A stretch of DNA of 32,691 bases from Reclinomonas americana ATCC 50394 (taxonomy: Eukaryota): contig PS015163.1 in NCBI GenBank assembly GCA_048213135.1, positions 92,597 through 125,287 on the forward strand, written 5' to 3'. The notes under the pieces are model-generated. The model ran no database searches. It was given only the letters and a program-made list of their open reading frames with translations, and had not been told where the DNA came from. Positions 2,100-30,811 of this stretch are shown here, one piece after another. Numbering within the stretch: position 1 is the first letter of the stretch; each line of letters opens with the position of its first letter. The position numbers and the translations under genes were made by a program.

Positions 2100-2930
2100 T
2101 CAGTTCAGCACAAACAAGCGGTAGCCGACAAAGTCGTCGTAGGTGTAGGTGGCGCGATCGAAGCCTGTGCCGCACAATGTCAGTCTCTTTGCGCGCGGAG
2201 AAAGGAAGGGGATTTGATTTTTTCCGCACCTGGATCATTGATGAGGAAGTTGCCATTGTCGTCCCAGCCGACCAGCAGCACAAAGTGACGGCCGTTCATC
2301 ACGTCTGCGGGCGGAGCGTGTTACACAAACGCCACACATCGTGAAGAAGGAGCAAGGAGCGCAACTGGCAATGACCACGGTGTGGCCGTCGCTCAAGTAC
2401 GCCTTGATCTGGTCGGGCGTCAGGCCGGTCTTGGTGAGAATCGGGCCTGGCAGTCACGCGCGTTACACAAGGTGTGGTGGCGGATGAAATGGAAGAGAGG
2501 GGGAGAGCGTGCATACCCTTCCACGTGATGCGTGCCGGGTTGATGTTCGGCACCACCGACTCCTCCAGGTCGTTGCCGGAGTCGTAGCCGCCGTGCGACT
2601 TGAGCCACGCATTCAGCGTGCCCGGGTTAGAGGGCTGGCCCGCAATGGTGATATTGTGGCCACCGAGGCTCATGGAGACGGAGCTCTGGTGGAGGGGAAA
2701 GGGAGGGAGGGATAGAGAGAGAATGAGGAGGAGAAGAAAGAAAGGAGAGGAGGAAAGAAAGAAAGAAGAAGAAAAACAAAACAACAACAACAAGAACAAG
2801 AACAACAACAAGATGAACGAGAAGAAGAAGAAGAAGGATGCGAGAAGAAGGAGGAGGATGTGGAGGAGGAGATCAAGGAGGAGGAGGAGGAGGAAGAGGA
2901 GGAAAAGAAGCAAGGAGAAGAAGAAGAAGA

Positions 2931-2978
<48 letters not shown>

Positions 2979-3462
2979 NNNNNNNNNNNNNNNNNNNNNN
3001 NNNNNNNNNNNNNNNNNNNNNNNNNNNNNNNNNNNNNNNNNNNNNNNNNNNNNNNNNNNNNNNNNNNNNNNNNNNNNNNNNNNNNNNNNNNNNNNNNNNN
3101 NNNNNNNNNNNNNNNNNNNNNNNNNNNNNNNNNNNNNNNNNNNNNNNNNNNNNNNNNNNNNNNNNNNNNNNNNNNNNNNNNNNNNNNNNNNNNNNNNNNN
3201 NNNNNNNNNNNNNNNNNNNNNNNNNNNNNNNNNNNNNNNNNNNNNNNNNNNNNNNNNNNNNNNNNNNNNNNNNNNNNNNNNNNNNNNNNNNNNNNNNNNN
3301 NNNNNNNNNNNNNNNNNNNNNNAACAAGACGAAGAAAGAGGAAGACCAACAACACAGGCACGAGCATGATGCAAGCATCCCTCTCTCTCAATCTCTCTCA
3401 CTCATTCCTCATCTCAATCACTCAGCAGCATGCGCACATTCTCATCCTTCCACACAGTCTCC

Positions 3463-3501
<39 letters not shown>

Positions 3502-3943
3502 TCTCTTCTTTTGTTCCGAACCATGAGGCATCCCACAGCGCACACAGTCTCCGTCTCAATCAAGTCCTTGCCCCTGCACACACACACACGCACACAAGAG
3601 AGAGAGAGTGAGAATGAGCACACACACACACACACACACACTCTCTCTCTCTCTCACGCACCAGCGCGAATCACACTGCTTATACAGCGGATACGCAAAC
3701 GGAGTAACACCATCAGGCGTGAACTCAGTCTGCACACGCACACACGCACACACGCACGCACACACACATACACACACACACACACACACGAATGAGTTTA
3801 TTATCAGACACACACAGAGAGAGTGCATTCTCTCATTGCTTGCACGCAACAGTCACATGTCGCAACAAGCGCGACTCTGTCAGTGAGGCCAGCAGTGCCA
3901 CACTCACAAGCAGAGAGATCAGCAGGAGAGCACTCGACTTCAT
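2100..3943 (-). CDS. Secreted peptidase C39-like (papain-fold, Peptidase_C39_2-type) protein, 7 exons
   Basis: Exons 3943-3851 (or -3857), 3729-3662, 3573-3522, 2685-2517, 2446-2366, 2304-2230 and 2164-2100 splice in frame. Signal peptide MKSSALLLISLLVSVALLASLTES, then YKQCDSRW, GCLMSSVSM (Cys), NPGTLNAWLKSHGGY, VIANVMNGRHFVLLVG (His), INDPGF (Asp), ending YRLFVLN*. Confidence 0.85.
2700..2978. repeat. Purine-rich (GAA/GAG/AAC)n and (GA)n tract in peptidase intron, ending at an assembly gap
   Basis: Directly visible; gap 2979-3322 follows. Confidence 0.9.
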
Positions 3944-4086
3944 GTCTCAGACAACAATAACGAGAGAATGACGGATTGGCAGCTCTTCGGAGGACATGAT
4001 TGCCCTTTCGATATTGATATGTGCTTGTGGCAAACCTATCTCCTGCATCATCCTCAAGTCGAATTCATCAAGTTTCACACATGACA

Positions 4087-4408: not shown

Positions 4409-7400
4409 CAGGTGCGCCACATCGTCGACATTGACGCCGCGCGAATTCAGCAGCGACGACAACTGTGACCAGGTGATCGAGTCGGTGCCGTGCTGGTGGC
4501 GCGCCTCACGCATGAGGGCCTCCAGATCCTCCGGCTGCAGAACAGAGTGGTCGCGCAGTGTCGAGTGCACGTGCAGGAGCGACATGGATGAGGGAGCCGG
4601 CAGCGCCAGAGTGCTCATGGTGCGTGCGGCGCCGGGCGTGGCAGCCGCGGGAGTGGCGGTGGCGGTCGCGGTGGTGGGAATCAGCTCAAAGTGCTTCGGG
4701 TTCACCGGGCGCACGACGTACTGCGCGGCGAAAGCCAAGCTCATCAGACCCACCATGGTGTACCTGCGGACGACTGCGTGTGAGTTCCCTCTCCTTGTCA
4801 AACATAAAACCGCCTCGCCACGCAACATGGTGCTGTTGTAGAGGAACGGCGTCGGGTCGACCGTGCCGGGCGGCATGATTTCCACCAACTTTGACAGCGT
4901 CAGCGTCTTGGTTTCGATGAGATCCGACGCCTTCTCCACTGGCGCCAGGAACTTCTCTTGGAACTTGCTAGGGTCCACCTGGGGTGAGGAGGAGAAAAGA
5001 AAGAGAGAGAGAGGGAGATGCAGTGAGCTTGCGCACAGAAAGTACAATCGAGAAAGACAGAGGTTGGAGGAGCAAGAGAGAGCAACTGCGCAGTCGATAA
5101 GAGAATCCTCAACTCTCCTCTCTCCAGCGTCTGTTTCACGTATACATTTCTCTGTGTCCATTTCACTCTCTCACTCTCTCTGAATCCTCGATCCTCCTAC
5201 CACTCTCATTCACATCCGACATATCCTCTCTCTCCCTGAATCGATTTCCCTCCCATCTCGCGCGCGCCCTCTGTGAAAATTTGTACCTCACTTCTCCATT
5301 TTTGCAGCTCTCTCTCCTCACTCGATCGCTACTTCTGTGCACACTCTCACGCTTGCGCTCGTCAGTCTCTCACAGTGACGACTTTCAGTCTCCACCTCAC
5401 TCTCTCGCCACATATCCTCTACTGCATTTGTAATGCGCTGTTTTCTCTATCACTCTAGCACTCTCCCCTCCACTCTGTGCACACGAAAACACTTCTCGCT
5501 CCCTGCCTCTCCGACTCTCACAATTGCGCTCCTCAGCCCCGCCTCGCTCTCTTGCCTCCTTTCATCCTTGAACTTAAACCCTCTCCATCCGCTAGCTCTC
5601 TTTGCGTCTCACTCTCCCCTCCGCGCTCTTTTTCTTTCCACCTCTTCTCGCCACCTTCCTCTCCAACTCTCACACTTGCCTCAGCCCCCGCCTTCCTCTC
5701 TTGCCCCCTTTCGTCCTTGATCTTCATCTCTCTCCTTGCCTGCTCTCCCTCACTCTCCTTCACCACCTCTCTCTCCCTTCCGTCCACGCCACTCTCTCTC
5801 TCTCTCTCTCTCTCTCCCCCCCCCTACCCTCCTTCCCCTTCCCCGCTCCTTCTCACCTTGGTCAGCAAATCATCGATCGCCGCCTTCTCCGCCCCGCTGC
5901 GCTGCGTCAGCACCACAATGGGACCGGCGAGAGAGCCCGTGGTCGAGCCGAGCAGCATGCGTCCGTGATTGGCGCCCACATACTTGGCGCCAAACAACTC
6001 GGCCTCGTAGGCCGGCAGAATGGCGTAGGTGCCGCCCATGAACGAGACGGCGAGCCACGTCACTCCCACAAACGCATACAACATCACCGGCGACTTGCTC
6101 TCGATCACCGAACTCACAATGGTCGGTGTAACGAGGTACCTGGAGGGAGGAGGAGACAAGGCCAGGAAATAATGAGGCAGACGCCATGCTATAGCACAAA
6201 GAGCTCGCGCGCTCGAGGCGCAACAGAGGAATACTGCCGAGGGTGAACAGCGTAAAGGCCTTGCGCACGCCAAACTTGTCGGCGAATTGCGCCCACCCCA
6301 GACGACCGCCGAGGTTGCCGGAGGCCAGCACCAGCAAGAACGCAGAGGCGAAACCCGCGGTCACCAGCTCCGGCAGAGAGCGAGTGAAAATCTCACTCAT
6401 CACTGCCGCGACAAGCACTCATGAGAACTACACATAGTTACGAAGAAGCACTTCCTCATCCCATTCACTCACGTACCACTCTCTCACCCCTCTAAAGTCT
6501 TTCCCACTCTCTTCCCCCTCACTCCATCTCTCTGGAACGCAACTCGGCTTCGACACGCTCATCAGCGCCACACCGCCCGTGGCCATGCACGTGAATGTGG
6601 TGGCCAGCAGCCAAAACTGCGGCGTCTTCATCACCTGCGAAAAGTGCACATTGCCGGCGGTGGAACCGAGACCCGTCTTCGGAGCAACGTAGCCGGCCGG
6701 TGCGTAGCCCGGCGCCGGACGGCGCAGAGAAAATGCCGCGAGCAGCATGATGCACATGTACGTTGCGCCAATGATGCTCAGCGCTGCGGTGGCGCCGGTG
6801 TTGCCGCTGCCGACCACATACACGCCCTGCGTGGGGGAAGCACAGAGAGCGCGTGTGTGAGTGGAGACAGAGAGGGTGGGGAGAGCGCGGCGAGTCGTTA
6901 CCTCCTGCAGCAGCGAGCCTTGTGACAGGGTGGCCAGATCCATCGAATTGGCCACGACGACCTGCGCGCGGGAGGGTGAGGGAAGAAGAGAGGCATGAGA
7001 TGGCAACGCCACACAAGATGCTACGGACGACATGGTTCACTCAATCTCACGTTGTGCAGCGACGTCACCGACGATAGAAAGAGCAGTGCACTATCCACTG
7101 TATGACAGAAACAGAGTGCCTGCTCGTCGTGTCAAGTACAGAGAGCAACAAGCATCGCAAGGCCATCCTCACGCTCGAATGGGCGAGGGGCGAGACGTGA
7201 AAAGGCTGACAGAGAATTGCAGGGTTCCATTACCCAAATCTTTACGTGTGGCCAAGATCAGAAGAGACGTGCAAGACAGAAACAAAGAGCACGATAATCT
7301 CGCCGAGGACACAGAAAACAAGATGCTGCTGTCCCATATTCACGCTCGACGAAGCACACACGAGCGATGAAGAGCAGATGCAGCAGAAATCGCGATTGTC

Positions 7401-9249
7401 GCGATAATGACAGAAGCAGCAGGGTGTACAGCCGCGACATGCAAGACAGGAGAATGACACCGACATAACGGTACCAATGCCCCGTCCTAACGCTCGACAA
7501 AGCACCAATAACTTACGGAACCACCGTTTCCCGCCCCTTCCCCTCCCCTCCCCTCCCCTATCTCCCCCTTCTCCGCCCTTTCCCTTTTCTGCTCACCTCC
7601 TTGAGCGCATCACCAACATTGGCAAACAGCTTGCCATCCTTGGAGATCACCTCGACCGCGTCGGCCGGCCCGAGATACGTCGGCAGGCGGGAGAATTTCT
7701 TCATCAAGTACGAGACCGCGGGCGCAAAGAAGAGTGCACCAGAGCCGAATCCGGCAATGGTAATGCCTCCCGCCAGCGCACGACGATCGGGGAACCACTG
7801 GATGAGCGCCTGCACCGGCGGCGTGTATCCCAATCCCACGCCAGTACCGCCTGTGGTGGTGCGCGCAGTCAGTGAGTCAGCACGAGGAGAATGGATGGAA
7901 GGGCAACAATAAAATGAACGCAACCGAGCACTCCGTAGCCAAGATACACCAGCCACAGCTGGTGCGTGGCCACTCCAAGAGCCGACAGCATCACGCCGCC
8001 ACCAAAGCACAGCGCCGCCGTAACCATGGCCGCTCGCATGCCGACACGCGTTTGCCACTTGCCGCCGAGCGCAGCAGAAATGCCCTGCATGGCCAGCACC
8101 GTGGCCATCGGGTACGTGGCCTCGGCCAGCGACCAATCCGAGGCCGCTGGCGCCACAAAACCGTACTCACGTGACAAGGCACCCGACATGGCCGACCACG
8201 CATACACCGAGCCAATGCCTGCGATCGCACAGCGTACAGTGAGAAAACGGGAGGAAAGAAGGAAACAGACCGGCGCCGCAGCACCATAAACGGACAAGAT
8301 CTAGAGGGGAATCTGTATGCCAAGCAAAAACAAACGCAGGAAACTAACGAAATGGAATGGAGGACATGCCATGCACAAAACAGGAATCACAAGAGGCATG
8401 TAACAGCTCACCAAACTGAAATGATCACGACGCAACACGACAGACAGACAAGTGGCGTCGCATATGCAGATGTGCAGTCAGAAAACAGAAAGACAAGTGA
8501 ATGAAAGAAAGAGTGTGTGACTCTCGCAGTCGATATCTGCTGAGTGACAATGGATGAATACGAGAATGTAAGCGTGTGAGAGAGAGTGCGTATGAGTGTT
8601 TCTCACTCGCCTGCATGTCTGCACTCACAGGCACGTGAGAAACAGTGCGAGACAAGTGAGAAACAGTGTGTGTCTTGCTCCCATCTTCCCTTTCTCTTTC
8701 TCTTGATCATCTTTGCACTCACAGGCACGAGAGAAAGAGCGTGTTTGTCTCACTTTCTCTCCTCCCTCTCCCTCTCTCTCACGATCAGTCTTCTTCATGT
8801 CTGGAGAGCGCGTGTGTGTCTTGCTCCCTTCCCTTTCTCATGATCATCTTGCTCCTTCTCTGAACTCACATGCCCTTAAAAGAGAGTGCGTGTGTGCCTT
8901 GCTCCCTTCCTCTCTCACATACACACACAATCATTCTTCTGCTGCAGAAGAGAGCGCGAAACAGACAAGTCAATCAGTGCCACCTCTCCTCCCCTTTTCC
9001 TCCCCTTTCCCTCCCGCTTCTCCTTACGCAACACACATGACAGCCGAGCGCAGGCACCATCATCAACCAGCGATTCGTGAACGATGGCGATGCAACACCA
9101 GTGTCGGGGCCGGCCAATCGCTGCCACAGAGAAGACGTAGACGACGACTTGGCCTCAGTGGAGGCCAGTCGCGCGACCAGAGAGCCCTTGAGTGCTGCAT
9201 GGAGAGGCGAGGTGGTGGCGCGAAGAGAGCGCGACAGAGTCGACAGCAT
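4400..9249 (-). CDS. MFS transporter, oxalate/formate antiporter (OFA/YhjX-like) family, 9 exons
   Basis: Exons 9249-9033, 8218-7925, 7850-7597, 6961-6902, 6826-6544, 6402-6225, 6139-5857, 4978-4827 and 4763-4400 join in frame. Family motifs: NRWLMMVPALGCHVCIGSVYAWS, GVGLGYTPPVQALIQWFPDRRALAGGITIAGFGSG, KTPQFWLL, NLGGRLGWAQFADKFG, GGTYAILPAYEAELFG, DPTPFLYNSTMY, VRPVNPKHF. Confidence 0.9.
8590..8950. repeat. Degenerate intronic tandem repeat in MFS intron 1
   Basis: Recurrent gcactcacaggcacg.gagaaa (twice), gagag.gcg.gtg, tgtgtcttgctccc and tgatcatctt blocks. Confidence 0.6.
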
Positions 9250-9783: not shown

Positions 9784-12700
9784 TCACAGCGGCTTCCACC
9801 ACAGCGCGGTTTCGAGCATGTCGGCCTTGTCTCCGTCACCACAGGCGTGGTGTAGCTGCGTGCAACAGGCGTGAAGTCGTGAGGACACGAACATGCATAG
9901 CACATCAGCAGCTGCCCCCCCCCCCCCCTCACCACCACCAAGTCCGTCTCCTCCGGTATGTCGTTCCATTGTCTCCGCGCGACNNNNNNNNNNNNNNNNN
10001 NNNNNNNNNNNNNNNNNNNNNNNNNNNNNNNNNNNNNNNNNNNNNNNNNNNNNNNNNNNNNNNNNNNNNNNNNNNNNNNNNNNNNNNNNNNNNNNNNNNN
10101 NNNNNNNNNNNNNNNNNNNNNNNNNNNNNNNNNNNNNNNNNNNNNNNNNNNNNNNNNNNNNNNNNNNNNNNNNNNNNNNNNNNNNNNNNNNNNNNNNNNN
10201 NNNNNNNNNNNNNNNNNNNNNNNNNNTAGCAACTCGATTCCGCTGAGTGTGTTGACCTGGTGGAGGTCGAACCAGTCGATGCGCAGCCGACCGAGGCGCA
10301 CATGCACATCCACCAGCGCATTCATGAACTGCTGATCCTGCAGCTCCGACCAGTGCTGATTCAACTGGCCCAGAGCGGCCGCAAACAGTCGCAGCGCGTA
10401 CACAGTCGGTCGCACTGTCCATGCACCCGTGTTGATGCTCAACGCACGCTGGTGGGCGGCGCAAACATGGGATGGAATGCCCTTCTGCAAGCATGGATTG
10501 AAGGGCAAGTTAGAGAGACAAGCCAACTACTACAAGCATTCTCCAAAACTAGCCAGTTGCTCACCGAGCCGAAGTCTGACAAACTATTGGGAATCGTGTA
10601 CGACCAGGGATTGCGGGTACGCTCCCTTGGTACGCCCGCCAGCATCAGCGTCGCATCGTGGTCAGTACCGCCGTAGAGATCGGCGTGGAAGATGATGTCG
10701 GGCGGAATGTCGTACGTCTCCGACGCCGACCACAGTTGCGGCAGGTCCCACACTGGCCGCACAAATACGGCATCCATGTCGGCGTAGAATGGCTGCACAC
10801 CGCATCGCAGCAGCAGGTAGCCATACATGAAACGCAAGTTAATAGCGGGTGGGAAGCCATTCGCATCGTGCGGTCGGTCGACCATCCTGTGCGCGCACAG
10901 AGTGCGTTGGTCTTCGACTCATCGCCCCTCTCCCTAGCACTCTGCTCACCAGCCCGACTCGTCGAGGATCACACCCGCGTCCCGATCAGGTCCCAGTACT
11001 TCCCTGACGGCCGCCACCGTCGTCTCGTCGGCGCACACAATCAGCGGGAGCAGCCGCTCGCCGTGCGCGGCAAAGAACCGGGCCATCCACACTCTTATTA
11101 GTTGCAGATAACGCTCTGAATTCTTTGGCGCCAGCTGTACCGCTGTGAACACCACCAATCGATACGGCGAGGTGGGGCCCGCTTGCATAGTCATGCGCGG
11201 ATTCGCCAACACCGCCGCCAGCCGGTCCAGCATTAGCCGACTCTCCTGCATCGGTGGTTCCTGCAAGGGTAACAGCGACTGTGGGGTGGGGGCGAGGTGA
11301 TTTCCTACGGCAGCTGCCGCCTCCACGAGTGCCGTCTCGTCTGTGAGCACGCGCCACATCTCCGTCTCCAGCTCGCGACAGAGGTCGGCCGGATAGAACT
11401 CAATGCGTGGATACTCGGCCGTCCGCTTGCTGGTGCGCAGTGCGGCCGACAAGGTGTGCACGGGAGGCTCCGAGCGGTCCGGCAATGGTGGAGGCGCCAT
11501 GGTGAGGCTGCGCTGAGCAAACTGCGGACCGAGAAACTCGCACTCCAGTTCGTTTACCACCAGGTCCGCACCTCCTGCCAACAAAGCTGATAAGACAGCG
11601 AGTCCGCATGATGAGAGTACATCACACGTGGCACCACACAAACCTTGCAACGAGAGGCAGCGGAGATCGGCAGGCATCGATGCCTGTGCCGACGAAGAAA
11701 CCGACAATCGCAGCATCGGCGAGGCGTATCTCCACTCAGCGAAGAACTGACGGTTCCGCGCAGCTGGTGTCAGCGTCAATGGTTTTTGCCACTGCAAGAG
11801 TCAAGGTGCGAACATGGACAATGAGCGCAACATGACGCACGTGACGCGGCATAGTTTACGCAACACTCCAGTCGGCAACAAAATCGCAAAATCGCTTGCG
11901 GTTGTCTGCGAGTTTGTTGTCGTCGTTCTGCAAGTGGCATGCATGCCCATAAGTCAGCTTTCGTTTGATGAGACTCGGTACACCTATTGTCCGCAAGGGA
12001 AACTGGCCATGGTAAGCACGGACTTGCAGCACGCTCTCCGCACCTTTGTCAACAAGCTCCAACTCTGCCGCAACACCTCGCGCGCCACATCACTGTCCTC
12101 GCCAACTGCAGCCAACACTGCATCGACGGTGAGACAACTCAGGGTGAGAGCGATGGCGACTCATGATTACTCACCTGCGCCCCACAGTGTTGGCGCCGAG
12201 TACGTGTCCACATGCACATCCTTCGCTTGTGATGAACCCTTGGGCGTCACAGACACAGTCCACTTTCGCGCAGGGTACATGACAAAGCGCGGCACATCCA
12301 TGCGGTACACCATGATTGCCATCTCATCCTCAGTCATTGGTGTGACGGCGCCACATCCAACGCGCCTCAGCTGCATTGTCTGAGGGGCGAAAAGGGTAAG
12401 CGTGCGTGTACGTGCATGTGTGAGACAGACAAGGAAGGAGCAATGACAGCGCTGGCAAACCTGCAGAGCTGTCAGCACGTTGGAGGCGACCCGTTCAACG
12501 AGCTCCTCAGTCAGTGGAGAAGAGAGTGCGTGCGCTGTCAGGGCTTCTCTCACTGCAGGTAGCGGCATGCATTACCAGCATGAGAGAGGAAAGGGTGAAA
12601 CAAAAAGCCGAGCATGCTGCGAACACACACCAGCTTCGCCGACGGTGTCATGCTCATGACTGACAGTCACCACCACCACTTCACCCCCAATGTCGATGAG

Positions 12701-17440: not shown

Positions 17441-17679
17441 CGGAGCANNNNNNNNNNNNNNNNNNNNNNNNNNNNNNNNNNNNNNNNNNNNNNNNNNNNN
17501 NNNNNNNNNNNNNNNNNNNNNNNNNNGGGTGTGCGAGCATCGGTGACCCTTAAATTTTTCGAAAGTGAACCCTTAAGTTTTCCTGGGCCTCTTCATGTAC
17601 CCCTTAACTTTTTGGCATCCTTGTACGTCATGGATCCCGGGCAGCTGCAGCCTCACCGCNNNNNNNNNNNNNNNNNNNN

Positions 17680-18394
17680 AACCAGAGCCAGAGGCGGACC
17701 CGGAGAAGTTCGACTGCGACGAATTTGCGTTTCTCCTGCTGCCCATCTTCCTCGCCGTCTCCTTCGCGAACGCGCTTGCCAATGGAACCACCACCAGCTC
17801 CACCACGATAAGACAGTACGGTGTTGACATTGCACTCGCGTGGAACAGCAGTGCAGACCACTGTTCTGAAATGGATTTGAGTGCGACAGCGGAACCACAG
17901 ACGCAAATGAGCCACCACTCACCGATAAGGAACAGCACCGATCTCTGTGCCTGCTGTAGGAGGTCACTTTGCCAGGTAGGTCGCCACGGTACAAGGTCAT
18001 AGTCATTGTTGGTCTGCATGCTTCGCCCTGCATGGGAGGCTGGAGACGAGGAATGCAGTGAGCCGCAAAATGTGCGGAGAATTAACACTGTGCCAGCTGT
18101 GCATGTGCTTGTGTGCTTGAGTGCATGTGTGTGTGTGTGCGTGCGTGCAGTTGCAGTGGTTACCAAGTCTGGCGCAAACGCAACATTTCCGCAGGAGAGA
18201 ATTCGAAGATGCACACTCCACTCCTCGTCTGCTTGGAGAACAGTGAGACTTGCGCGATCTCCACTGTCGGGCAAGGCCAGCTGCTCTAGCACGTGAGTGT
18301 TGAACAGTGTCGTTGTCGATAGCTCAGCAAAACGGAGCGCGCGCTGCGCGCGGCCAGCATGCAGTGGGGTTGTAGGTACGGTTGACGATGCATT
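17680..18394 (-). CDS. Probable fragment of an unidentified spliced gene between gaps
   Basis: Open frame from 18394 (NASSTVPTT...LEQLALPDSGDRASLTVLQADEEWSVHLRILSCGN) ending at a GTTGCG donor-like site followed by a CA-repeat intron-like stretch, plus a further GTGAGT...ttcag intron. The downstream frame is ambiguous. Confidence 0.3.
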
Positions 18395-18658
18395 NNNNNN
18401 NNNNNNNNNNNNNNNNNNNNNNNNNNNNNNNNNNNNNNNNNNNNNNNNNNNNNNNNNNNNNNNNNNNNNNNNNNNNNNNNNNNNNNNNNNNNNNNNNNNN
18501 NNNNNNNNNNNNNNNNNNNNNNNNNNNNNNNNNNNNNNNNNNNNNNNNNNNNNNNNNNNNNNNNNNNNNNNNNNNNNNNNNNNNNNNNNNNNNNNNNNNN
18601 NNNNNNNNNNNNNNNNNNNNNNNNNNNNNNNNNNNNNNNNGCACGAACAATCTAATCA

Positions 18659-20506: not shown

Positions 20507-20775
20507 ATGCGATCTCTTCCGCTCCTTGTGTGCGTTCTCGCACTATGCCTCGCGCTGTGCCTTGCCGCCTCCAGCACACCACCATCGCGACGCTACCAAG
20601 CCGACGGCTCCGAAGTTGCTTACGATTACCTCGACGCCGATGACGACACCAGCAATGAGCAGGCGCAGGCAGTCGCAGTGCACTCCACTGCAGTCACTCC
20701 CTTCTCATGCGCGATCGGAAAGACCGATCTCAGCTCGCTGACGTTGCGTTGAGCAAGAGAGAGAAGTGAGAGAAA

Positions 20776-20809
<34 letters not shown>

Positions 20810-22672
20810 AGTGTGTGTGTGTGTGTGTGTGAGTGAGTGAGTGAGTGAGTGAGTGAGTGAGTGAGTGAGTGTGTGTGTGTGTTTGTGCACGTGTGCAATG
20901 TCCACTTTCGTTCTGCTGTGAGGCCGACCACGTGTGTCTGCGATGCGGATGCTGATGCTTGTGGTGATGTGTGTCAGTGGGTATAATCGCGCGGTGTTTG
21001 GCGATGAGGATCTGGATCCGCCGGGTTATGAGTACGTTGCGTGAGTGCAGCAGTGGTGTGATCGGGTCTTTGGTTTTTTGTGATCTCTCCTCCTGTGTGT
21101 GCGTGAGTGAGTGAGTGAGTGAGTGTGAGAGAGAGAGAGAGAGCTTCACTGGTGTGCTGCGCATTGGTGATCGCTTTTCATCTCACTTCATCTCGATCAT
21201 TTGGAGAGCTGTCGATCGCTTCCCCGCTCTTTACTCACGCTTTCTCCTTTATCTTGAGGAGCTTTTCATCGCTTTCCTATTCGTCGCGATCCTACTCTCC
21301 ATTCCGCTCTGTATTGCTCCTGTCGATTGTTCCGCCAGAGTCTGCGTTCGTTGCTCGCCATCGTTTCCCCACTCAGTCGTTTCCCCCTCCATGATTCACT
21401 CTCCTTCATCACAATCTGCGTTCAGTTGCTCGCCAGCGATCGCTTCCGCCGCTTTGCATGTTTCCTTCTCAGCTCTATTCCACTACATTCTGCGTTCTGT
21501 TCCTTGTCTGTCGCTTCCCTGCTCTCCATCCACTCTATTGATACTTGCCTCCAGGGTTCACTCTCCTCATCACAGTTTGCGTTCAGTTGCTCGCCAGCGA
21601 TCGCTTCCACCGCTTCGCACGCTCTTACTCATCGCTGTTCCACCACATTCTGGCGTTCTGTTCCTTGTCAGTCTCTTCCCTGCTCTTACATGGACCCACC
21701 CACCACTGCATTCTGCGTTCTGTTGCTCGCCAGCGATCGTTTCCCTGCTCTCTCCATTCACTCTGTGAAGCGCTCTTTTCGCTCTCCCCTCCCACACTAC
21801 CGATCGCCTCCATTGCCGTGCGCTTCTCTCCGTTTAGATCGCTCACTTCCTCCCTTGCCTCCCGCACAGCAAGTCATGATCTGCTCCGCCATCTCGTCCA
21901 AGGTGAGCATTGTTGCATCTCTTCCCTTCCACCTCCCACTCCTGCTCATCGCCTCTCCCACACAGGGCCAATGCTCCGGTACTCGCACACTCACTCCATT
22001 CTGCCCCTCATCCTCCCTTGCTGATCACTCTCTCCCTTCCGCAGGCAACCCCGTCGATCGCCCCGCCGCCGTGCTGCAGCGACGACCGGCCTCGGCCACC
22101 ACTCCGCTCTGCAAGAACTGCGGCGCCTTCAACGCCAACACGACGCTCGAGTACATTGATCCGATGAACGAGTCCGTCGGCGTGCGCCTGATTTACCGCG
22201 ACGGCGCCAGCTACAGCCGCCTCCGCGCCTACCGCACGTCGTACATTGATTTCTACTGCAACAAGACGATTGCGCCGGAGCAGGTGCAGATGCACTACAA
22301 TGGCGAGGACCGCACGCACGGCGTTTACCACTTCCGCATGGACACTCCCGTGGCGTGCCCAGTGGAACCGCCCCCACCAGGTGCGTGCAATCCGTGCTCT
22401 CTCTCTCACACATGTCCCTTGGCACCCCTCTCCCTCTTACCCAACACCACACAGGCGGCATCAATGTGACCGCTGTCGTGATCGGCTCCATTGGCGGCGC
22501 CATTGTTTTGGTGGCTGCTGTTATCATCATCATCTTCCTCGTGCGCCGCAACCGCCGCTTGCAGGCCGACGTGACCAAGTTCCGCGAGTGGGAGAAAACG
22601 CAGACGGCCTCGGTCAAGAACCCGTACGGTCAGCTGCAGGAGGATCCACGGGCTGGCTCCATTCAGATTTGA
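20507..22672 (+). CDS. Type I membrane protein with a single MRH domain (cation-dependent mannose-6-phosphate receptor / ATG27-like), 6 exons
   Basis: Exons 20507-20742, 20978-21035, 21870-21902, 21966-21978, 22045-22380 and 22455-22672. Signal peptide; C....DLSSL, YEYQVMIC, GVRLIYRDG, RTSYIDFYC, YHFRMDTPVAC; transmembrane AVVIGSIGGAIVLVAAVIIIIFLV; tail with YGQL sorting motif. Confidence 0.8.
20760..20885. repeat. (GT)n/(GA)n/(GAGT)n compound microsatellite in intron
   Basis: Directly visible. Confidence 0.95.
21340..21770 (+). repeat. Degenerate intronic minisatellite
   Basis: tgcgttc(a/t)gttgctcgccagcgatcg recurs near 21417, 21578 and 21714 (partial near 21343), with cattctg(c/g)...gttctgttccttgtc near 21487 and 21646. 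Confidence 0.75.
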
Positions 22673-22749
22673 GTGTGTCGGGGTGGCTGTTCACGCGGTA
22701 TCTCGTTGTTGTTGAGCACAGTGAAGTTGTGCTTTTTATCACCACCAGT

Positions 22750-23869
22750 TCACTTGACTCGATTCCACTCGTCGTAGCGCAGTAGATTCTCGGCCAGCAC
22801 AGCGGAGAGGTGCGAGGCCACCACCCCCACGTGCGCGGGTGTAGTGGTGGCGACGACAGTCGGTAGAGCCTCGCGCATCAACGCCGTGGCCGGCAGTGCC
22901 ACCAACCACGGAGGCCACACCTTGTCGCCATCATCGCCCACCACAAACGCCACTCGATCGTGCGACCGCCTCGTCTGCGCCCACTGCTGTGCATCCTGCG
23001 ACACCTCCACAGCGCGCGCCAGCGCCTCTGGAGTCAACAGCAGCAGGTGCCGCCTGTACGCCTCCTTGAACAGCGCAACGCACACCTCGTGCAGACGCTG
23101 CGTGATCTCGTCGCACACACGCGGATGCACGTGCACCTTGCGGGTCCACACGCGGCTAAAGATCTCTGTTGTGATGTGGCATGTGAGCTGCTGACACAGC
23201 GTGTGTCGTCTCGCCTCACGTCCTCCACTCACCCTTATCGGCCGCCATCTGCACCACTGATCGTCGTGCAGTCACGTACACACCGCCGAGGGTGCCGCCC
23301 TCGAATCCCCACTCACGCACACTCACATCCGCGTGCGACGCAAGCGCCCGCGCGCCAATGTCAGGCATCGCCCACTGTCGACCTTGCTCATCGGAGGCCC
23401 GCACGAAGCGAATGAGAAAACCTGACGACAAGATATGAGACACTGAAGTAGAGGAAGAAGAAGAATGGAGAGAAGCAAGGAGAGGAGAGAGGAGAGAGGA
23501 GGAGGAGGAGGAGGAGGAGGAGCAGGAAGAAGAAGAAGAAGAAGAAGGAGGAGGAGAAGAAGAAGGATAAGAAGAGGAACAAGAGCAAGAAGAAGCCCGC
23601 TACTTTCTCCCCTTTCCTCTCCCCTCTCCTCTCCTCTCCCCTCTCCTCTCCCCTCTCCTCTCCCCTCTCCTCTCCCCACTCCTCTCCTCCCCCCTCTCTC
23701 AACTTCTTGGGTACGCCTGCTGCAGCACAATGCACCGTCGCACAGGCGCCAACCATCGACTCACTGCTCCTGTGCAGACACAGAGAGGACCATGAGTCGA
23801 CCTCGTGCGTGAAAGACAAGCCAAGCAGACGCAACAGTGCGGGTTGCACCACGGAGGTCGCAGGATCAT
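22750..23869 (-). CDS. Hypothetical protein, about 232 aa, 4 exons
   Basis: Exons 23869-23836, 23763-23704, 23421-23233 and 23165-22750 join in frame (MILRPPWCNPHLSRWLAP...SFLIRFVRASDEQGRQW...EIFSRVWTRKVHVHP...LRYDEWNRVK*). The last two exons are firmer than the first two; no family recognised. Confidence 0.55.
23450..23700. repeat. (GAG/GAA)n followed by (CTCTC/CCTCT)n low-complexity tract in intron
   Basis: Directly visible purine block followed by a pyrimidine block. Confidence 0.85.
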
Positions 23870-24149
23870 TGACTTTGTTGCCCACCTTTGTTGACCCTTT
23901 GACCGTTACAAATTTTCGTCGTCACTCGCGAGAAAAGTCCAGCGCGCGCGCACACACTTACTCCCACACGCACACAGATAGTCACTCTCCGCGTCTGCGC
24001 CTCTCATGCATCGCACACCGCCAGTGTCGGCGAAGAAGCCCATGCAGTTGCGTCGCACTCAATGGCTTCAGTGTGTCACTCACTCGGTCTCATTCAGTGC
24101 GTGTTCGTGCAGTGGCCTGAGCACAGCCAAGTCGGTGCGCTTTCACCAC

Positions 24150-26845
24150 ATGGCGCCCGTGGATCAGAGGTGCTTGCGTCGCACACACTCTTGCCCCCAT
24201 GACACACACTCGCTCTTCCGCTCACTTGTGCTTGTTGCAGCACGGCGATTGACGAGGTGACGCGTCAATTGGTGTTCTCACCGTCCACACCCGGTGGCGC
24301 CCTGCCGCGTCGCAACAAGGCAACAGGAGGCACTCCATCGCACGCAGCCGGCACTGTCATTGGCACGCCAGGAGGCGGCAATGCAGAGACTGCTCCGGTC
24401 AAGGTCAGCAATCAACAGTCGCGGTGCTCTTCTTGCTCGTCGCCTAACCACCCCCCCCCCCCTCCTCTCTCTCTCTCCTCCNNNNNNNNNNNNNNNNNNN
24501 NNNNNNNNNNNNNNNNNNNNNNNNNNNNNNNNNNNNNNNNNNNNNNNNNNNNNNNNNNNNNNNNNNNNNNNNNNNNNNNNNNNNNNNNNNNNNNNNNNNN
24601 NNNNNNNNNNNNNNNNNNNNNNNNNNNNNNNNNNNNNNNNNNNNNNNNNNNNNNNNNNNNNNNNNNNNNNNNNNNNNNNNNNNNNNNNNNNNNNNNNNNN
24701 NNNNNNNNNNNNNNNNNNNNNNNNNNNNNNNNNNNNNNNNNNNNNNNNNNNNNNNNNNNNNNNNNNNNNNNNNNNNNNNNNNNNNNNNNNNNNNNNNNNN
24801 NNNNNNNNNNNNNNNNNNNNNNNNNNNNNNNNNNNNNNNNNNNNNNNNNNNNNNNNNNNNNNNNNNNNNNNNNNNNNNNNNNNNNNNNNNNNNNNNNNNN
24901 NNNNNNNNNNNNNNNNNNNNNNNNNNNNNNNNNNNNNNNNNNNNNNNNNNNNNNNNNNNNNNNNNNNNNNNNNNNNNNNNNNNNNNNNNNNNNNNNNNNN
25001 NNNNNNNNNNNNNNNNNNNNNNNNNNNNNNNNNNNNNNNNNNNNNNNNNNNNNNNNNNNNNNNNNNNNNNNNNNNNNNNNNNNNNNNNNNNNNNNNNNNN
25101 NNNNNNNNNNNNNNNNNNNNNNNNNNNNNNNNNNNNNNNNNNNNNNNNNNNNNNNNNNNNNNNNNNNNNNNNNNNNNNNNNNNNNNNNNNNNNNNNNNNN
25201 NNNNNNNNNNNNNNNNNNNNNNNNNNNNNNNNNNNNNNNNNNNNNNNNNNNNNNNNNNNNNNNNNNNNNNNNNNNNNNNNNNNNNNNNNNNNNNNNNNNN
25301 NNNNNNNNNNNNNNNNNNNNNNNNNNNNNNNNNNNNNNNNNNNNNNNNNNNNNNNNNNNNNNNNNNNNNNNNNNNNNNNNNNNNNNNNNNNNNNNNNNNN
25401 NNNNNNNNNNNNNNNNNNNNNNNNNNNNNNNNNNNNNNNNNNNNNNNNNNNNNNCGCGTCTCTTCTTCGTCTCGTCCGCCTACCCACCCCCCCTCCCCTC
25501 CTCTCTCTCTCTCCCTCTCCCTCTCCCTCTCCCTCTCCCTCTCCCCTCTCCCCTCTCCCCTCTCCCTCTCCCTCTCTCCCCGACTCACAGGTGTTCCTTC
25601 GTCTGCGCCCCATGGAGGATCCCACCGAGGCCAGCAACGTCCGTATCAACGACGACAGCACAGTCACGCTTGTGCCGCCACCTGCGCTGGGTGGCCGTCA
25701 AGTGGACCGCAACGAGCGCACGTTTACGTTTCACCGCATCTTTGATGCACACGCCTCGCAGGTGCGACGAGAGCGGGCGGGCACACACACACACCCCACA
25801 CATTGCGCAGTGTTCTCACTGGAGAATCTGCGTGTGCGTAGGATGACTTGTTCAGCACGTGCGCAATGCCGCTGGTCAACAATTTGTGCGAGGGCCAGTC
25901 GGCGCTGCTGTTTGCCTACGGCGTGACGAATGCCGGCAAGACGTACACCATTCTTGGTACGAACGAGCACGAGGGCATTCTGCCGCGGTGCTTGCGTCGC
26001 ATCATCGGGCTCGTCACGACCCACAATGCGCACCGCCACGACACTCGACGCGGCGAGGAGGGTGAGTGCACTCGTGCCGCACACTCTTTCTCTGCCAATT
26101 CACTGACGTGTCGCCTCCTCCCAGAACCCGCTCTATCGCACTTTGACAAGCAATACGTGTACAGCGTGGTTGTCTCGCAACTGGAGATCTACAACGAGCG
26201 CTGTTTCGACTTGCTGGCGGGTCCACCGCAGTACGACTGCGCCGCCGATGTGGGTGCCAGTCGCCGAGCACCGCTCGACATTCATTTCCGCGACAACCGC
26301 GTGCATGTCGTGGGACTGGAGGAGCGCCCGCTTCCAGACCTCGAAACGGCTGCCGATGTGCTGGCGCACGGCATTCGCAATCGCCAGACCGCTGTCACCG
26401 CGGCCAATGAGCTGTCGAGTCGCAGCCACAGCGTCTTCACCATCAAGCTTGTGCGACACAACCCGTCAGTCGTTGCGTGCCTTTTGTGAGTGGCCGAAAG
26501 GAGGCGAGCGTATGCTCATCCTCACACACGCTTGAGCAGATTGGGCCGACCGAAGAAGTCGGTGTGTTGAAGCTTGTCGACTTGGCTGGCTCCGAGCGCG
26601 CCTCCAAGACCGGCGCCGACGGCGAACGCCTCCGTGAGGCCATGCAGATCAACTCATCGCTGCACGTGCTTGGCAAGTGCCTCGAGGCGCTGCGCAAGTC
26701 GCAAAAGTCGGAGCAGCGCGTCCCCTTCCGCGAGAGCAAGCTCACTCGCATCTTCCAGGACACGTTCCTCGACGGTGGACGGGTGGTGCGTCAGTCACAG
26801 AGTGTCGCTGTTTGCGTTGGCAGTGCTTGCTGGCTGCTGCAGTCT

Positions 26846-26885
<40 letters not shown>

Positions 26886-29800
26886 NNNNNNNNNNNNNNN
26901 NNNNNNNNNNNNNNNNNNNNNNNNNNNNNNNNNNNNNNNNNNNNNNNNNNNNNNNNNNNNNNNNNNNNNNNNNNNNNNNNNNNNNNNNNNNNNNNNNNNN
27001 NNNNNNNNNNNNNNNNNNNNNNNNNNNNNNNNNNNNNNNNNNNNNNNNNNNNNNNNNNNNNNNNNNNNNNNNNNNNNNNNNNNNNNNNNNNNNNNNNNNN
27101 NNNNNNNNNNNNNNNNNNNNNNNNNNNNNNNNNNNNNNNNNNNNNNNNNNNNNNNNNNNNNNNNNNNNNNNNNNNNNNNNNNNNNNNNNNNNNNNNNNNN
27201 NNNNNNNNNNNNNNNNNNNNNNNNNNNNNNNNNNNNNNNNNNNNNNNNNNNNNNNNNNNNNNNNNNNNNNNNNNNNNNNNNNNNNNNNNNNNNNNNNNNN
27301 NNNNNNNNNNNNNNNNNNNNNNNNNNNNNNNNNNNNNNNNNNNNNNNNNNNNNNNNNNNNNNNNNNNNNNNNNNNNNNNNNNNNNNNNNNNNNNNNNNNN
27401 NNNNNNNNNNNACGCGCGCTCTCCCCCACTATTTCCCTCACTCTCTCTCTCTCTCTTTTCTCTTCTCTTCTGTGTTCACTCCCTCTCTTGTTGCCTACTC
27501 TTACTGTTGTCACGCGCTCTCTCCCACTCTTCCTCTCTCTCTCTCTCTCGTTCTCTCCTCTTCTGTGTTCACTCCCTCTTGTTACCTTCTCTTATTGTTG
27601 TCACGCGCTCTCCCACTCTCTCTACCTTTCTCCTTCTCCTATCTTCGTTCCTTATCCACTCACTTCCCATCTCTTCCCCCAGGTGATGATTGCCAATGTC
27701 AACCCATCGGCCCGCGAGTACGATGAAACCTCCAACACCTTGCACTACTCCGCAATCGCCAAGGGCATTCACACGGTCAGCCGCGTGGACACTGGGCGCA
27801 AGCGCATCTTTGCCTCATCGCCTGGCATGGCCTCGGTGGCGTCGTCGGAAGGTGTGCACTTCGTCTACTGCGATATTTGTCGTCGTTTCCAGAAAACATG
27901 CTAACGCGCTGGCACAGCGTACTTGGAACTCGTCGAGTACAACGAGCATCTCATCAACGAAATCGACCTGCTGCGCCGTCGGGTACGCCGCAGCTCACTC
28001 TGTGTGACTCGAATCTCTCCCACCGCTCACCTTTTTCTTGTGACAGATTCTCGAGGACGACATCCGCCACAGCGAGGCACTGAACGAAACGAGGGAGATT
28101 CTTGCCAGCGAACTCGCACTCAAGCTGGCTGAAACGCAACGCTTTTACGAGGATCTCATGGAGGAGCAGGTTTTTTTTCATGAAAGCGGAATGGTTTTCC
28201 TCTGCCGTCCCTCTTCAACTGATCACCTCGTCTCGCACAGCTGGCCGACTGTGAGCTTAAGATGGAGCGCAAGATCGCACTGTTTGAGCGGCATGCAGGC
28301 CTTGTGGCACCAGCTGACGTTGCGCAGCCGGCGAACTCCCTCGGAGCTGCAGAGATTGCCAGTCTGCGTGGTGCGTTGCGTCCTCACTTGCTTCCTCTTT
28401 CTTTCTCTCACTCCTTCCCATTTCTCAGAATCACTCTCGCAACTGCAAGACGCCTTCAAGAAGCAGCTGGAGTGCGCCCACAAGGAAACTGCGCGTGTCA
28501 TGCACGAGCTGGAGGAGCGGAACAATGCGTACCTGCAGCTGCAACGAGACTCAGCTGCCGCCGAGCGTCAGCACGCAGAGAACAGCCGCCAGCAGGAGGC
28601 CGTGATCATGTCACTGAAGCAGGAGTTGGTGGTGGCGCACAGTCGCTCGCGCGCTCTCGAGCAGCAGAATTTGCAGTTGGAGGACGAAAAGTCATTGGCC
28701 CTCGCCGAGGTTGCCTCACTGCGAGGTGCAGTCTGCTCTCACTCTCGCACCCGCACACGCACTCACACGCTTGCCCCGTTGCCCTCACATTCACTTCGCG
28801 CCACACAGAGGAACATGCAGAGCAGGCCCAAGAGCTGTTGCGCAAGCGAGACAGCATCTCGTTCTCGGTGAGCAACAGCACGACAGCCGTGCCTTGCTAA
28901 CCGTGCGTGTTCATCTCACCCTATTGCTTTGCTGCTGGCAGGACGAGGAGGCGCAGCATGAGGTTGAAATGCTGCGCGCACGCCTGCAAGTGGCCGAGCT
29001 GCGCACTGCCGAGTTGAAGGACCTGGCTGAGCAGCTGAAGCAGCAGCTGTACTTCCAGCTGCAAAAGGAGACAGTCACCACCACCGTACAGTGGGAGGAA
29101 CCAATGGAGGAGGACGATGAGGAGGAAGAGGAGGAAGACGCGGAGAAGAAGGCTCGCCGTCTCAGTCGCAAGCGGCCATCAGATCAGAGCACCGAGGCTC
29201 TGGAGGCGCACATTAAGTTGTCGCCGCCAGCTGCCTGGCTGCGCGAGCGCCTTTCTCTCACTGTCGCTGCCTCACCGACGAGCGCCAGTCCGGTGGTGTT
29301 GGCCCAGCCACGCAGTCCACTGCCGCTCACATTCGGTGGCAACGGGTCTTCGTCGACAATGTCGCCAGCCCCCGCACCAATGGTCATGGCTCCGCGTCCA
29401 CTGGTGGTGACGACGACCACTGCAGCTGCGCCGCCGGCCGAGACTACCCGCAAGCAGCAGCCACGACGCACCACGAAAAAGAAGGCCGCTACGCCATCAC
29501 CGCCACCGTCGCCCATGTCGCCGCCGCGGCAAGCACCCGCCGCAGAGGAGCTGGAGAAAGAGGACGCTGCGATGGCCGGCGACCACGAGGACGAAGACGG
29601 AGAAGAGGATGAGACTGGCGAGGAGCCGGTGGCGCGAGAGGAAACGGCAGTGCTGCGAGAGCGGTTCCCGTTCTCACCCGACAGCATGCCCGCGGCGCGT
29701 GTTAAGAAGAGTTGCGACAATCTCAGCTGCTCATGTCAGGGGATCCCTGTCTGACTCCATTCCGTGTATATTGCAGCGTTTGGTCAAAAGGTCAAGGCCT

Positions 29801-30333
29801 TTACGAAAAATCTGTTCAGCAAGAAGAAGAAGACCAAGGACCCGGAGGTAATTTTTCTCGTCTCCTTCTTTTGCTGTAGGCTTGCCCGCCGCAGTTGCTC
29901 ACCTGCCCATGTACAGCGCGCATTCATGGACTCACCGTCGTTCATTGTCGCCGAGAATGAGGCGGCAAAGGACAAGGAGAATTCGCCGGCCAAGCTCGAC
30001 TTTGCCGATGCCGCAGAGCCGCCATCTCCGACCGCGGACGAAGTGGCCGTCGCTGCCGCCTCACCGGTGGTGGAGACCAAGCCAAAGAGCAGGTGAGAAG
30101 AAACAAAGCGTTGTGTGTGTGTGACTGCATGACGAGCTCCTCCTCACGCGTTTTTATTGTGCGCTGCAGCGGCCGCCGAAAGCTGCACAATGTGGAGAGC
30201 AAGCCGGCCGAATCGCGGGTATGTTCTCTCTACCTCCTCCATCCTGTCCTATCGAGCTCATGGCGTGCTGCAGGGACCCACACGCACACCAATCGCCAAG
30301 CGCACGCGCAATCGCACGGCCGTGGTCAAATAA
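24150..30333 (+). CDS. Kinesin-6 family motor (KIF20/MKLP2-like), about 17 exons
   Basis: VKVFLRLRP, P-loop AYGVTNAGKT (kinesin-6-type GVTxxGKT), EIYNE, SSRSHSVF, LVDLAGSER, VPFRESKLTRIFQ, MIANVNP, then coiled coil, Pro/acidic low-complexity region and C-terminal TPIAKRTRNRTAVVK* (TAA 30331-30333). Large gaps fall within introns. Confidence 0.9.
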
Positions 30334-30486
30334 GCGGAGCTCTGCTGCCCCGCTGATATCGAGCGCGGGTGTGCAGGATAGCCGCCACCCGTGCAATGTT
30401 TTTCCCACCCTCCCCGCCACCGCCACCGCCACCCGAATGTATATAGACAGCATCATGATCGACATTTTATTTTGACCGCGCCTGGC

Positions 30487-30811
30487 TTAATAGTAGTAGT
30501 GCTCGTTTTCCGCATCATACTGCGCACACAAATGGTGAGGGACAGCGAGCCAACAGCAACAACAACACATGACCAGCCAACCGCCACGCAACATCGGCGT
30601 CAATGTCGACGCAATTCTCTAGCGCCACTCTGACCAGGCGAACCATGGTCTCGTAACTCGAGTAATCGGAGAGGCTCAGCGTCCACCCGCACGTGGCGGC
30701 GCGGGGGAGCTGGTCAATGTCTCCCTCGTAGTACACCTGCAACCTCTGTGCTGTACCACCCGTGCGCGGCAAGCGACTGCTTCCAGAGATGAAGCGGAGC
30801 AGTTGCGAGCG
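30487..30811 (-). CDS. C-terminal lobe of a HECT E3 ubiquitin ligase (last two exons)
   Basis: Exon 30811-30593 RSQLLRFISGSSRLP...LPRAATCGWTLSLSDYSS...ALENCVDIDAD (catalytic Cys in AATC), spliced to 30519-30487 YDAENEHYYY*. Confidence 0.85.

Follow-up and report, generated by a model that had tools for sequence, protein, structure and literature searches.

How can introns begin with GTTGCG after exons that do not end in G, if nearly all other introns of the same genes are preceded by an exon-final G? This question is raised by a stretch of 32,691 bases from Reclinomonas americana ATCC 50394 (GenBank assembly GCA_048213135.1, contig PS015163.1, positions 92,597 to 125,287), here called the window. 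A sequence-only reading of the window had proposed that fifteen introns start at GTTGCG, mostly as GTTGCGT, and that these donors and the ordinary G/GTGCGT donors are one and the same element, with the cleavage moved by one base (a slash outside brackets marks a junction throughout). On balance we favour, with modest confidence, the view that ordinary GT-AG (U2-type) introns have a real second class of 5' splice site here, GTTGCG(T), which is recognised in a shifted register. The wider idea of a lineage-wide, rule-bound use of such a shifted register is partly supported, i.e. as a pattern in the sequence, the mechanism behind it being a proposal.

GTTGCG sites as intron starts

The DNA of the window is eukaryotic and GC-rich, with many short introns. 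Curation of its donors by hand resulted in a catalogue of 54 entries, or 48 once six paralogous pairs were collapsed, in which GTTGCG(T) accounts for 15/54 and 14/48 donors, respectively (about 29% of the donors in the window), confirming the claim of a frequent and rule-bound donor class. Every one of the fifteen GTTGCG motifs was recovered at its proposed +1 position and strand (Table 1), 12 of the 15 continue as GTTGCGT, and the exon base at -1 is A, C or T in 14 of them, the donor at 7924 (ctcg/GTTGCG) being the only class member with G at this position. The eight GTGCG donors named for contrast all carry G at -1 (8/8), and the related GTTGAG motif is present at 23703.

A lack of enrichment of GTTGCG had been named as an outcome that would refute the class; in the window we observed the opposite. 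The hexamer occurs 37 times compared to 24.4±4.4 in 100 dinucleotide shuffles, none of which reaches 37, and the heptamer GTTGCGT occurs 17 times compared to 5.1±2.2 (3.3-fold; 0/100 shuffles reach 17). As twelve of these 17 heptamers are claimed donors, the remaining ones are at chance level. The excess of the hexamer is confined to the sense strand: relative to the gene models, 25 copies are in sense, 10 in antisense and 2 in intergenic orientation, and after subtraction of the 15 donors sense and antisense copies are balanced (10 versus 10). A Viterbi gene finder that scores codon usage, is blind to the donor sequence and accepts every GT..AG pair placed 38 introns, four of which start with GTTGCG (7924, 6543, 4826 and 2365). 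With a YAG and loose branch-site acceptor model GTTGCG was found in 6 of 35 introns and was the commonest donor hexamer, compared to a background of 37 among 3,667 GT sites (binomial p=1.3e-6). When the finder was left to train its own donor and acceptor matrices, the number of introns escalated to 228, and this version was discarded.

The most precise evidence for individual junctions comes from the OFA-family MFS transporter gene. Splicing of its eight proposed introns gives a product of 694 amino acids, which we aligned using MAFFT with 40 homologues; these share 40-55% identity with it, and the sources of several annotate them as bacterial OFA transporters. Across the 15 rows inspected, all eight junctions, five at GTTGCG and three at ordinary donors, are gap-free within conserved blocks; by this alignment, the five GTTGCG introns are fixed to the residue by intronless bacterial homologues. 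For a frame test, all stop-free in-frame GT..AG pairs within ±40 nt were listed for each intron. The GTTGCG model is the sole solution at 2365, 7924 and 20743, while two solutions exist at 9032 and several at the remaining sites. Intron removal restores a conserved frame in the five MFS introns at the level of residues and at 2365 and 20743 by uniqueness. The exon following the intron at 2365 (2231-2302) matches the Peptidase_C39_2 profile at 120-142/143 (E 9.5e-4; 20.2 bits, below the cut-off of 24), and Pfam placed no domain on the short exon 2367-2444. In the gene interrupted at 20743, which weakly resembles mannose-6-phosphate receptor (MRH) proteins, exon 1 encodes a signal peptide and a C...DLSSL motif, and the exon 22047-22379 gives weak matches to the CIMR and Man-6-P receptor profiles. 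A further line of evidence is provided by the paralogous introns at 11864 and 14895: their flanking exons are conserved, differing mostly at third positions and by in-frame indels of 3 and 18 nt, and intron sequence and length diverge directly after GTTGCGTAA.

Other junctions are less constrained. At 26472, extrapolation of the unaligned exon ends makes the Pfam kinesin profile run on without interruption from one flanking exon to the next (214 plus 3 residues, followed by 5 residues plus 223). The donor A/GTCGTT located 3 nt upstream, at 26469, keeps the frame as well, and loop length at this junction differs among solved kinesins, so that the structures do not choose between the two. The intron at 21036 joins YEY to QVMICSAISSK, which fits the cysteine pattern of the domain; a rival model uses G/GTTATG at 21025. 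The exon upstream of 30592 reaches the end of the HECT profile (254-300/306), and since read-through is open the frame does not force an intron here. One more GTTGCG, at 28837, was rejected as donor as it is exonic (Leu-Leu-Arg) and lies between the ordinary donors 28726 and 28868. Judged by homology, frame and paralogues, nine of the fifteen GTTGCG donors (eight independent ones) can be considered firm and six plausible.

Apart from their first bases, these introns are unremarkable. We show that their 3' halves are like those of the other introns: all 48 curated introns, the 15 class members included, are of the GT..AG form, and a branch-like YTVAY motif precedes the AG by 10-38 nt in 13/14 class introns and by 7-47 nt in 25/28 others, the distances being similar in both groups. 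The median length is 73.5 nt in the class, ranging from 60 to 834 nt, and 72.5 nt in the others (Mann-Whitney p=0.51). U12-type introns are characterised by the donor consensus (A/G)TATCCTT and the branch consensus TCCTTAAC. Neither is present in the class, which has GTTGCG(T) donors and 3' ends resembling CTCAC, CTGAC or CTCAT, and a U12-type assignment was therefore rejected. The common seven-base start could also point to a mobile intron family, i.e. introners bringing their own donor. In an all-against-all comparison of the 48 introns by blastn-short, similarity among class introns was restricted to low-complexity runs, and the sole true match was a pair of paralogous ordinary introns. As the class introns share nothing beyond the donor, and given their wide range of lengths, they appear to be ordinary introns, and a mobile origin is highly improbable.

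The exon-final G and a donor slid by one base

The two kinds of donors differ most strikingly at the last base of the exon. G is found at -1 in 1/15 GTTGCG donors compared to 37/39 others (Fisher p=5e-10), in 1/14 compared to 32/34 with paralogues collapsed (p=7e-9) and in 1/8 compared to 23/24 if only well-supported introns are considered (p=1.8e-5). Independence of GTTGCG from the -1 base was the second outcome named as refuting the class, and the window shows a strong dependence instead (p=5e-10). Neither of the two other donors lacking the -1 G is secure: the methyltransferase frame at 16774 may just run on to a stop after seven more codons, and the GTTGAG site at 23703 is unverifiable. 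The proposal that the class is used when the exon lacks a final G needs rewording. It holds in that nearly all other donors have the -1 G; the avoidance of G within the class is not significant (1/14, with about 28% expected; p=0.065). A better wording turns the rule round: an exon-final G is needed by every donor except GTTGCG.

That the pattern might be an artefact, caused by the small sample, wrong intron models, decayed genes or a peculiarity of few genes, has to be considered, since six of the fifteen sites are ambiguous, five derive from one gene, two are paralogous, the catalogue was curated by hand and the support is entirely sequence-based. However, intronless homologues pin down five junctions to the residue, gene finders blind to donors select the motif, the heptamer is 3.3-fold enriched over shuffles and on sense strands only, the association with the -1 base persists in the well-supported introns (p=1.8e-5), and seven or eight genes are involved, all of which makes an artefact very unlikely.

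We derived a position matrix from the 33 ordinary donors, i.e. those not beginning with GTTG, and scored the class in different registers. In register 0 the class reaches a mean of -8.4 bits, a value exceeded by 92% of the GT sites of the window, whereas in register +1, with the single G>T column ignored, it reaches +6.9 bits compared to 5.9±3.4 for the ordinary donors (leave-one-out). The control registers -1 and +2 give -11.1 and -22.4 bits. The class thus combines a poor canonical match with a good match at +1, as expected for a shifted register, and we show that, slid by one base, it departs from the ordinary consensus (A)G/GUG(C/A)GU in only one conserved column. All class members have T at +3 (14/14), which would follow because the second and third letters of the element must be U to allow both GU cleavage and pairing. 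An element slid by one base would likewise account for the exon-final G being dispensable in the class and for +5 being C while +6 is G, in ordinary donors G being present at -1 in 32/34 and at +5 in 26/32.

These observations would fit a mechanism in which a single element, G-(G/U)-U-G-C-G-U, is bound by the same machinery in both classes, initially by U1 and possibly by U6 at a later stage, and in which cleavage takes place immediately before the element's first GU, so that GGU would be cleaved as G/GU and GUU as /GUU. The intron +1 G would then replace the exon-final G and the intron +6 G would replace the +5 G; a bulged U at +2/+3 would represent an equivalent geometry. As the change from G to U costs one pair, the rest of the element would have to be optimal, and the strict C at +5 predicts a U1 with a G opposite the ordinary +4 position (5'-ACG(U/C)AC-3'), as described for Mastigamoeba, instead of ACUUAC. 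Whether the whole genome uses such a two-register donor code, G(G/U)UGCGU, cut before the first GU and read by a U1 5' end ACG(U/C)AC, is a more tentative proposal, which we regard as possible rather than probable. The same caution, somewhat short of even confidence, applies to the consequence that cleavage would be one base out of step with the U1 helix, and possibly the U6 helix, in about three of ten introns.

The pairing calculations illustrate what this mechanism would demand of U1. Counting Watson-Crick pairs with the standard U1 5' end as printed in PMC4856993, the class forms 2.9 pairs in register 0 and 4.5 in register +1. If U1 carries G at position 5 (ACGUAC), register +1 has 5.5 pairs with a mean predicted duplex energy of -5.0 kcal/mol; for the variant ACGCAC the values are 6.5 pairs and -7.0 kcal/mol.

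Several points weigh against the shifted register. With standard U1, the mean predicted duplex energy is -0.8 kcal/mol for the class versus -7.3 for ordinary donors, so that the model needs an unseen change in U1, and the pairing of U6 in the shifted geometry is purely conjectural. GCG and GAG forms occur at a ratio of 14:1 in the class, the GAG case being doubtful, versus 9:13 in ordinary donors (p=0.0016), which is not what random sampling of the ordinary donors would give. Furthermore, T occupies exon position -1 in 7 of 14 independent class donors (p=0.001 versus the composition of flanking exons), and this position does not mimic the ordinary -2, which is A in 17/31; the T at -1 is explained by neither the shift model nor U1 pairing. 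Finally, all fifteen junctions are deduced from sequence alone, six of them having in-frame alternatives or not being forced, and the sample is one window of 32.7 kb. The claim of one element with the cut moved by one base stands insofar as the pattern fits the matrix; it does not cover the bias toward GCG, the T-rich -1 position and the weak duplex with standard U1. As an observation on codons, the T at -1 of the class includes T-ending codons amid a GC-rich coding context.

Some of these points would be accommodated by the main rival, a dedicated second U1 or U1-like RNA with the 5' end 5'-ACGCAAC-3', complementary to GUUGCGU in the normal register. Each donor class would then have its own RNA, comparable to U1 for U2-type and U11 for U12-type introns, with the 3' half of the introns in common. 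Base pairing along the full motif is suggested by its six to seven invariant bases; the strict +5 C and the near absence of GAG are more readily understood as the imprint of a fixed complement than as decay of an ordinary site; and standard U1 pairs very weakly with the class. Co-evolved U1 5' ends are described for Entamoeba and Mastigamoeba and side-by-side variants for Physarum (bioRxiv 10.1101/2022.06.08.495308). Nevertheless, we consider a dedicated RNA unlikely, as it would require four changes in the U1 5' end and would leave two observations without explanation, namely that the motif equals the ordinary consensus slid by one at every conserved column and that all other donors need the -1 G. 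An Rfam search of the window for small nuclear RNA (snRNA) genes returned none at the gathering score and none at E≤1.

Alternatively, recognition may not depend on U1, the class being defined by a sequence-specific protein or by later contacts to U5/U6 and carrying to an extreme the known division of donors into exon-side (AG//GU) and intron-side (//GURAG) ones. The enrichment of T at -1, which lacks an explanation by U1 pairing, would be in agreement with this, as would the either/or of -1 G and intron-side motif, which corresponds to a known 5'/3' compensation as described in PMC11732430 and PMC11842720. However, the class motif differs from //GURAG, lacks the +5 G and pairs poorly with the U6 ACAGA box as these reports describe it, and its exact match to the ordinary consensus slid by one base would be a coincidence. 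We therefore judge recognition without U1 to be improbable.

Relation to known 5' splice sites

Shifted registers are established in human, where all validated non-canonical registers together make up 1.5% of 5' splice sites (Tan et al. 2016, PMC4856993). The human shifted-register sites (Roca & Krainer 2009), as described there, likewise start with GUU, with the U1 pairs displaced by one, the +1 G in the place of the -1 base and cleavage at GU. In contrast to these, the window motif makes up about 29% of donors, has six to seven invariant bases and reads GCG instead of AAG, its register being predicted, and all other donors of the window follow a near-absolute -1 G rule. A bulge +2/+3 register (Roca et al. 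2012) is given in the same source for a few dozen predicted human sites (68 before and 54 after curation; PMC4856993). GU(U)GCGU can indeed be drawn as GUGCGU with an extra U looped out; in this drawing the dispensable exon-final G stays unexplained. A second highly conserved donor class that is independent of the exon-final G is also a feature of U12-type introns, their frequency in human being given as 0.36% (PMC4856993).

5' splice sites have been divided into AG//GUNNN and NN//GURAG classes according to exon- versus intron-side strength (PMC11732430). The either/or of an exon-side G and an intron-side motif is common to that split, as set out in PMC11732430 and PMC11842720, and to the window. 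However, ordinary donors of the window have the -1 G plus mostly the +5 G, while the class has neither in the normal register, and its intron-side motif is GUUGCGU and not GURAG.

Atypical donors accompanied by altered U1 5' ends are described for Entamoeba (GUUUGUU with U1 AACAAAC) and Mastigamoeba (GUGCGC with U1 ACGUAC), and standard and modified U1 variants are said to coexist in Physarum (bioRxiv 10.1101/2022.06.08.495308). The window donors share the U at +3 with Entamoeba and the C at +4 with Mastigamoeba, and in both organisms U1 tracks the donor. According to this description, Entamoeba and Mastigamoeba have one consensus each, while the window has two classes side by side, and the GTGCG donors of the window continue with T, A or G compared to C in Mastigamoeba. 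Ostreococcus uses GTGCGTG with a standard U1 (Irimia & Roy 2008, PMC2483917), and +4 C donors with standard U1 are reported for Mamiellales and Thecamonas (bioRxiv 10.1101/2022.06.08.495308). The ordinary class G/GTGCGT of the window has the same atypical +4 C as these organisms, for which the parts of the two reports available to us (PMC2483917; bioRxiv 10.1101/2022.06.08.495308) mention no GTTGCG class. Near-identical matches to proteins from these annotated genomes were not seen. Diplonemids were discarded as a possible source, their donors, given as (G)/GTATG (PMC12621601), being unlike those of the window. A search of the full-text literature, judged by the result lists and the openings of abstracts and with logos in figures and supplements beyond its reach, found no description of GTTGCG/GUUGCG as a donor.

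How the spliceosome settles the exact cleavage site once U1 has departed continues to be investigated using a few unusual human sites and mutants. If about 30% of its introns use a donor that fits the ordinary consensus only when slid by one base, and all its other donors require the exon-final G, this genome would offer hundreds or thousands of natural test cases. Under a genome-wide two-register code, the uncoupling of U1 register from cleavage would be a routine, selectable feature of a whole genome instead of a rare human oddity. It would make clear predictions for the U1 5' end and for mutants at -1, +2 and +5, and would add a third, two-class case to the few known examples of co-evolution of donors and U1. 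There is also a practical consequence for gene prediction, as standard donor models would rank the class below most random GT sites and about a third of introns would be mis-annotated.

Features and genes of the window

Gene calls were drawn from open reading frames, Pfam and homology and are listed in Table 1 together with the donors discussed above.

Table 1. Introns, donor sites and genes of the window (positions in the window; nt, intron length; UTR, untranslated region; both runs, chosen by both the donor-blind and the YAG/branch gene finder)
Feature	Coordinates	Strand	Donor	Remarks
MFS intron 1	8219..9032	minus	T/GTTGCGTAA	814 nt; junction HVC/IGSVYAWS gap-free; rival in-frame pair with GTCATG at 9041 would remove 3 conserved residues
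MFS intron 2	7851..7924	minus	G/GTTGCGTTC	74 nt; GVLG/GTGVGLGY gap-free; both runs
MFS intron 5	6403..6543	minus	A/GTTGCGTTC	141 nt; SVSKP/MMSEIF gap-free; both runs
MFS intron 6	6140..6224	minus	T/GTTGCGCCT	85 nt; GSIPL/YLV gap-free; chosen by YAG/branch gene finder
MFS intron 8	4764..4826	minus	T/GTTGCGTGG	63 nt; LYNSTM/YTM gap-free; both runs
C39-like peptidase intron	2305..2365	minus	A/GTTGCGCTC	61 nt; sole in-frame pair; both runs
First intron of peptidase gene	3730..3850	minus	T/GTTGCGTGC	121 nt; phase 0; directly after signal peptide; ambiguous, T/GTGACT at 3856 equally in frame
Intron between small linking exons, tandem unit 1	11792..11864	minus	T/GTTGCGTAA	73 nt; in-frame exon chain and paralogue alignment
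Paralogous intron, tandem unit 0	14836..14895	minus	T/GTTGCGTAA	60 nt; merged with 11864 in collapsed statistics
Intron 1, MRH-domain membrane protein gene	20743..20977	plus	C/GTTGCGTTG	235 nt; sole in-frame pair
Intron 2, MRH-domain gene	21036..21869	plus	C/GTTGCGTGA	834 nt; phase 0; likely
Possible 5'UTR intron	23770..23835	minus	T/GTTGCGTCT	66 nt; upstream of ATG 23368, unverifiable; branch-like GACTCAT, pyrimidine run, CAG
Kinesin-6-like motor-domain intron	26472..26539	plus	C/GTTGCGTGC	68 nt
Kinesin tail intron	29711..29776	plus	A/GTTGCGACA	66 nt; phase 1; ambiguous, C/GTGTTA at 29699 equally in frame
Last intron, HECT gene fragment	30520..30592	minus	T/GTTGCGTGG	73 nt; plausible
Candidate sixteenth donor, absent from the sequence-only reading	18178..18184	minus	T/GTTGCGT	ends open frame; CAG acceptor at 18028 carries frame on in phase 0
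Sole GAG form of the class	23698..23703	minus	A/GTTGAG	upstream of ATG, unverifiable; followed by purine/pyrimidine hairpin
Ordinary donor	2165..2229	minus	G/GTGCGG	contrast class
Ordinary donor	3574..3661	minus	G/GTGCGT	contrast class
Ordinary donor	22381..22454	plus	G/GTGCGT	contrast class
Ordinary donor	25762..25841	plus	G/GTGCGA	contrast class
Ordinary donor	26786..27682	plus	G/GTGCGT	intron spans masked run; kinesin profile continuous by extrapolating unaligned exon end (294 + 4 residues, then 299)
Ordinary donor	28371..28428	plus	G/GTGCGTTGCGT	contrast class
Ordinary donor	31376..31472	plus	G/GTGCGT	contrast class
Ordinary donor	32199..32204	plus	G/GTGCGA	acceptor not placed
C39-like peptidase gene	~3943 to 2100	minus		Pfam match below cut-off
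OFA-family MFS transporter gene	9249 to 4400	minus		8 introns; homology
Three tandem units of a multi-domain family	17446 to ~9300	minus		includes catechol O-methyltransferase-like (COMT-like) domain
RNA ligase gene	18785-20095	minus		intronless, very divergent; Pfam PF09414, E 4.5e-14
Membrane protein gene	20508 to 22672	plus		weak, sub-cut-off MRH profile matches
Gene of family without assignment	23368 to 22750	minus		likely ATG at 23368
Kinesin-6-like (KIF20A-like) gene	~25590 to 30475	plus		
Two HECT fragments	30487-30845 and 30869-32690	minus and plus, respectively		opposite strands; flank 20-N run 30847-30866

The ordinary donor at 28371 (28371-28381, plus strand) carries a GTTGCGT heptamer four bases into its intron and thereby represents a tandem of both motifs.

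Without its 3,207 N the window has a G+C content of about 57.5%. The N form 11 runs (641-660, 2979-3322, 9984-10226, 15116-15696, 17448-17526, 17660-17679, 18395-18640, 24482-25454, 26886-27411, 30847-30866 and 32350-32504), most of which are probably masked microsatellites, because (GA)n, (CT)n or (GT)n repeats are found on their flanks; the long ones are located in introns or spacers. The three runs of 20 N may be assembly gaps. Across one of these, 30847-30866, two HECT sequences point away from each other, the end of a domain on the minus strand and a HECT-like gene on the plus strand, an arrangement that may result from an assembly mis-join or an inversion. No tRNA genes were found in the window.

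The proteins encoded in the window have only distant relatives. For the RNA ligase, 11 weak relatives were detected at E≤1e-3 among 1.8 billion representative proteins, the best one showing 41% identity, and a word search of proteins gave no match; from this scarcity the lineage seems to be very poorly sampled. The best identities are 53% for the COMT exon and 65% for the MFS exon, within a range of 41-65% over the proteins tried, and in the nearest clade of the MFS transporter one cluster includes a jellyfish protein. In the ESM Atlas, COMT was resolved to family level only, and an unassigned domain gave nothing. A scan of metagenomes returned relatives at ≤54% identity only, which are probably bacterial and hence provide no orthologous introns for comparison.

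Upstream of the gene starting at 23368, a purine run followed by a pyrimidine run (23480-23700) could form a hairpin; plant miRNA models match it below threshold, none near the gathering score, and we interpret it as an artefact of low complexity located in a putative 5'UTR intron.

The three tandem units contain a COMT-like domain (16775-17446), two domains without Pfam match and a common last exon ending ...DTYSAPTLWGAG, and small exons join the units in frame. The donor GTGAGTAAT at 12174 and 15822 holds an in-frame TAA, so that the protein would end there upon intron retention. In unit 1, a CAG is located about 28 nt downstream of the TAG acceptor at 13485 (minus strand), the aligned site of unit 2 (10485) reading CCG, and the upstream (T/C)AG acceptor is kept in both units. 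Judged from the aligned sequences, this difference resembles acceptor turnover between paralogues on a small scale.

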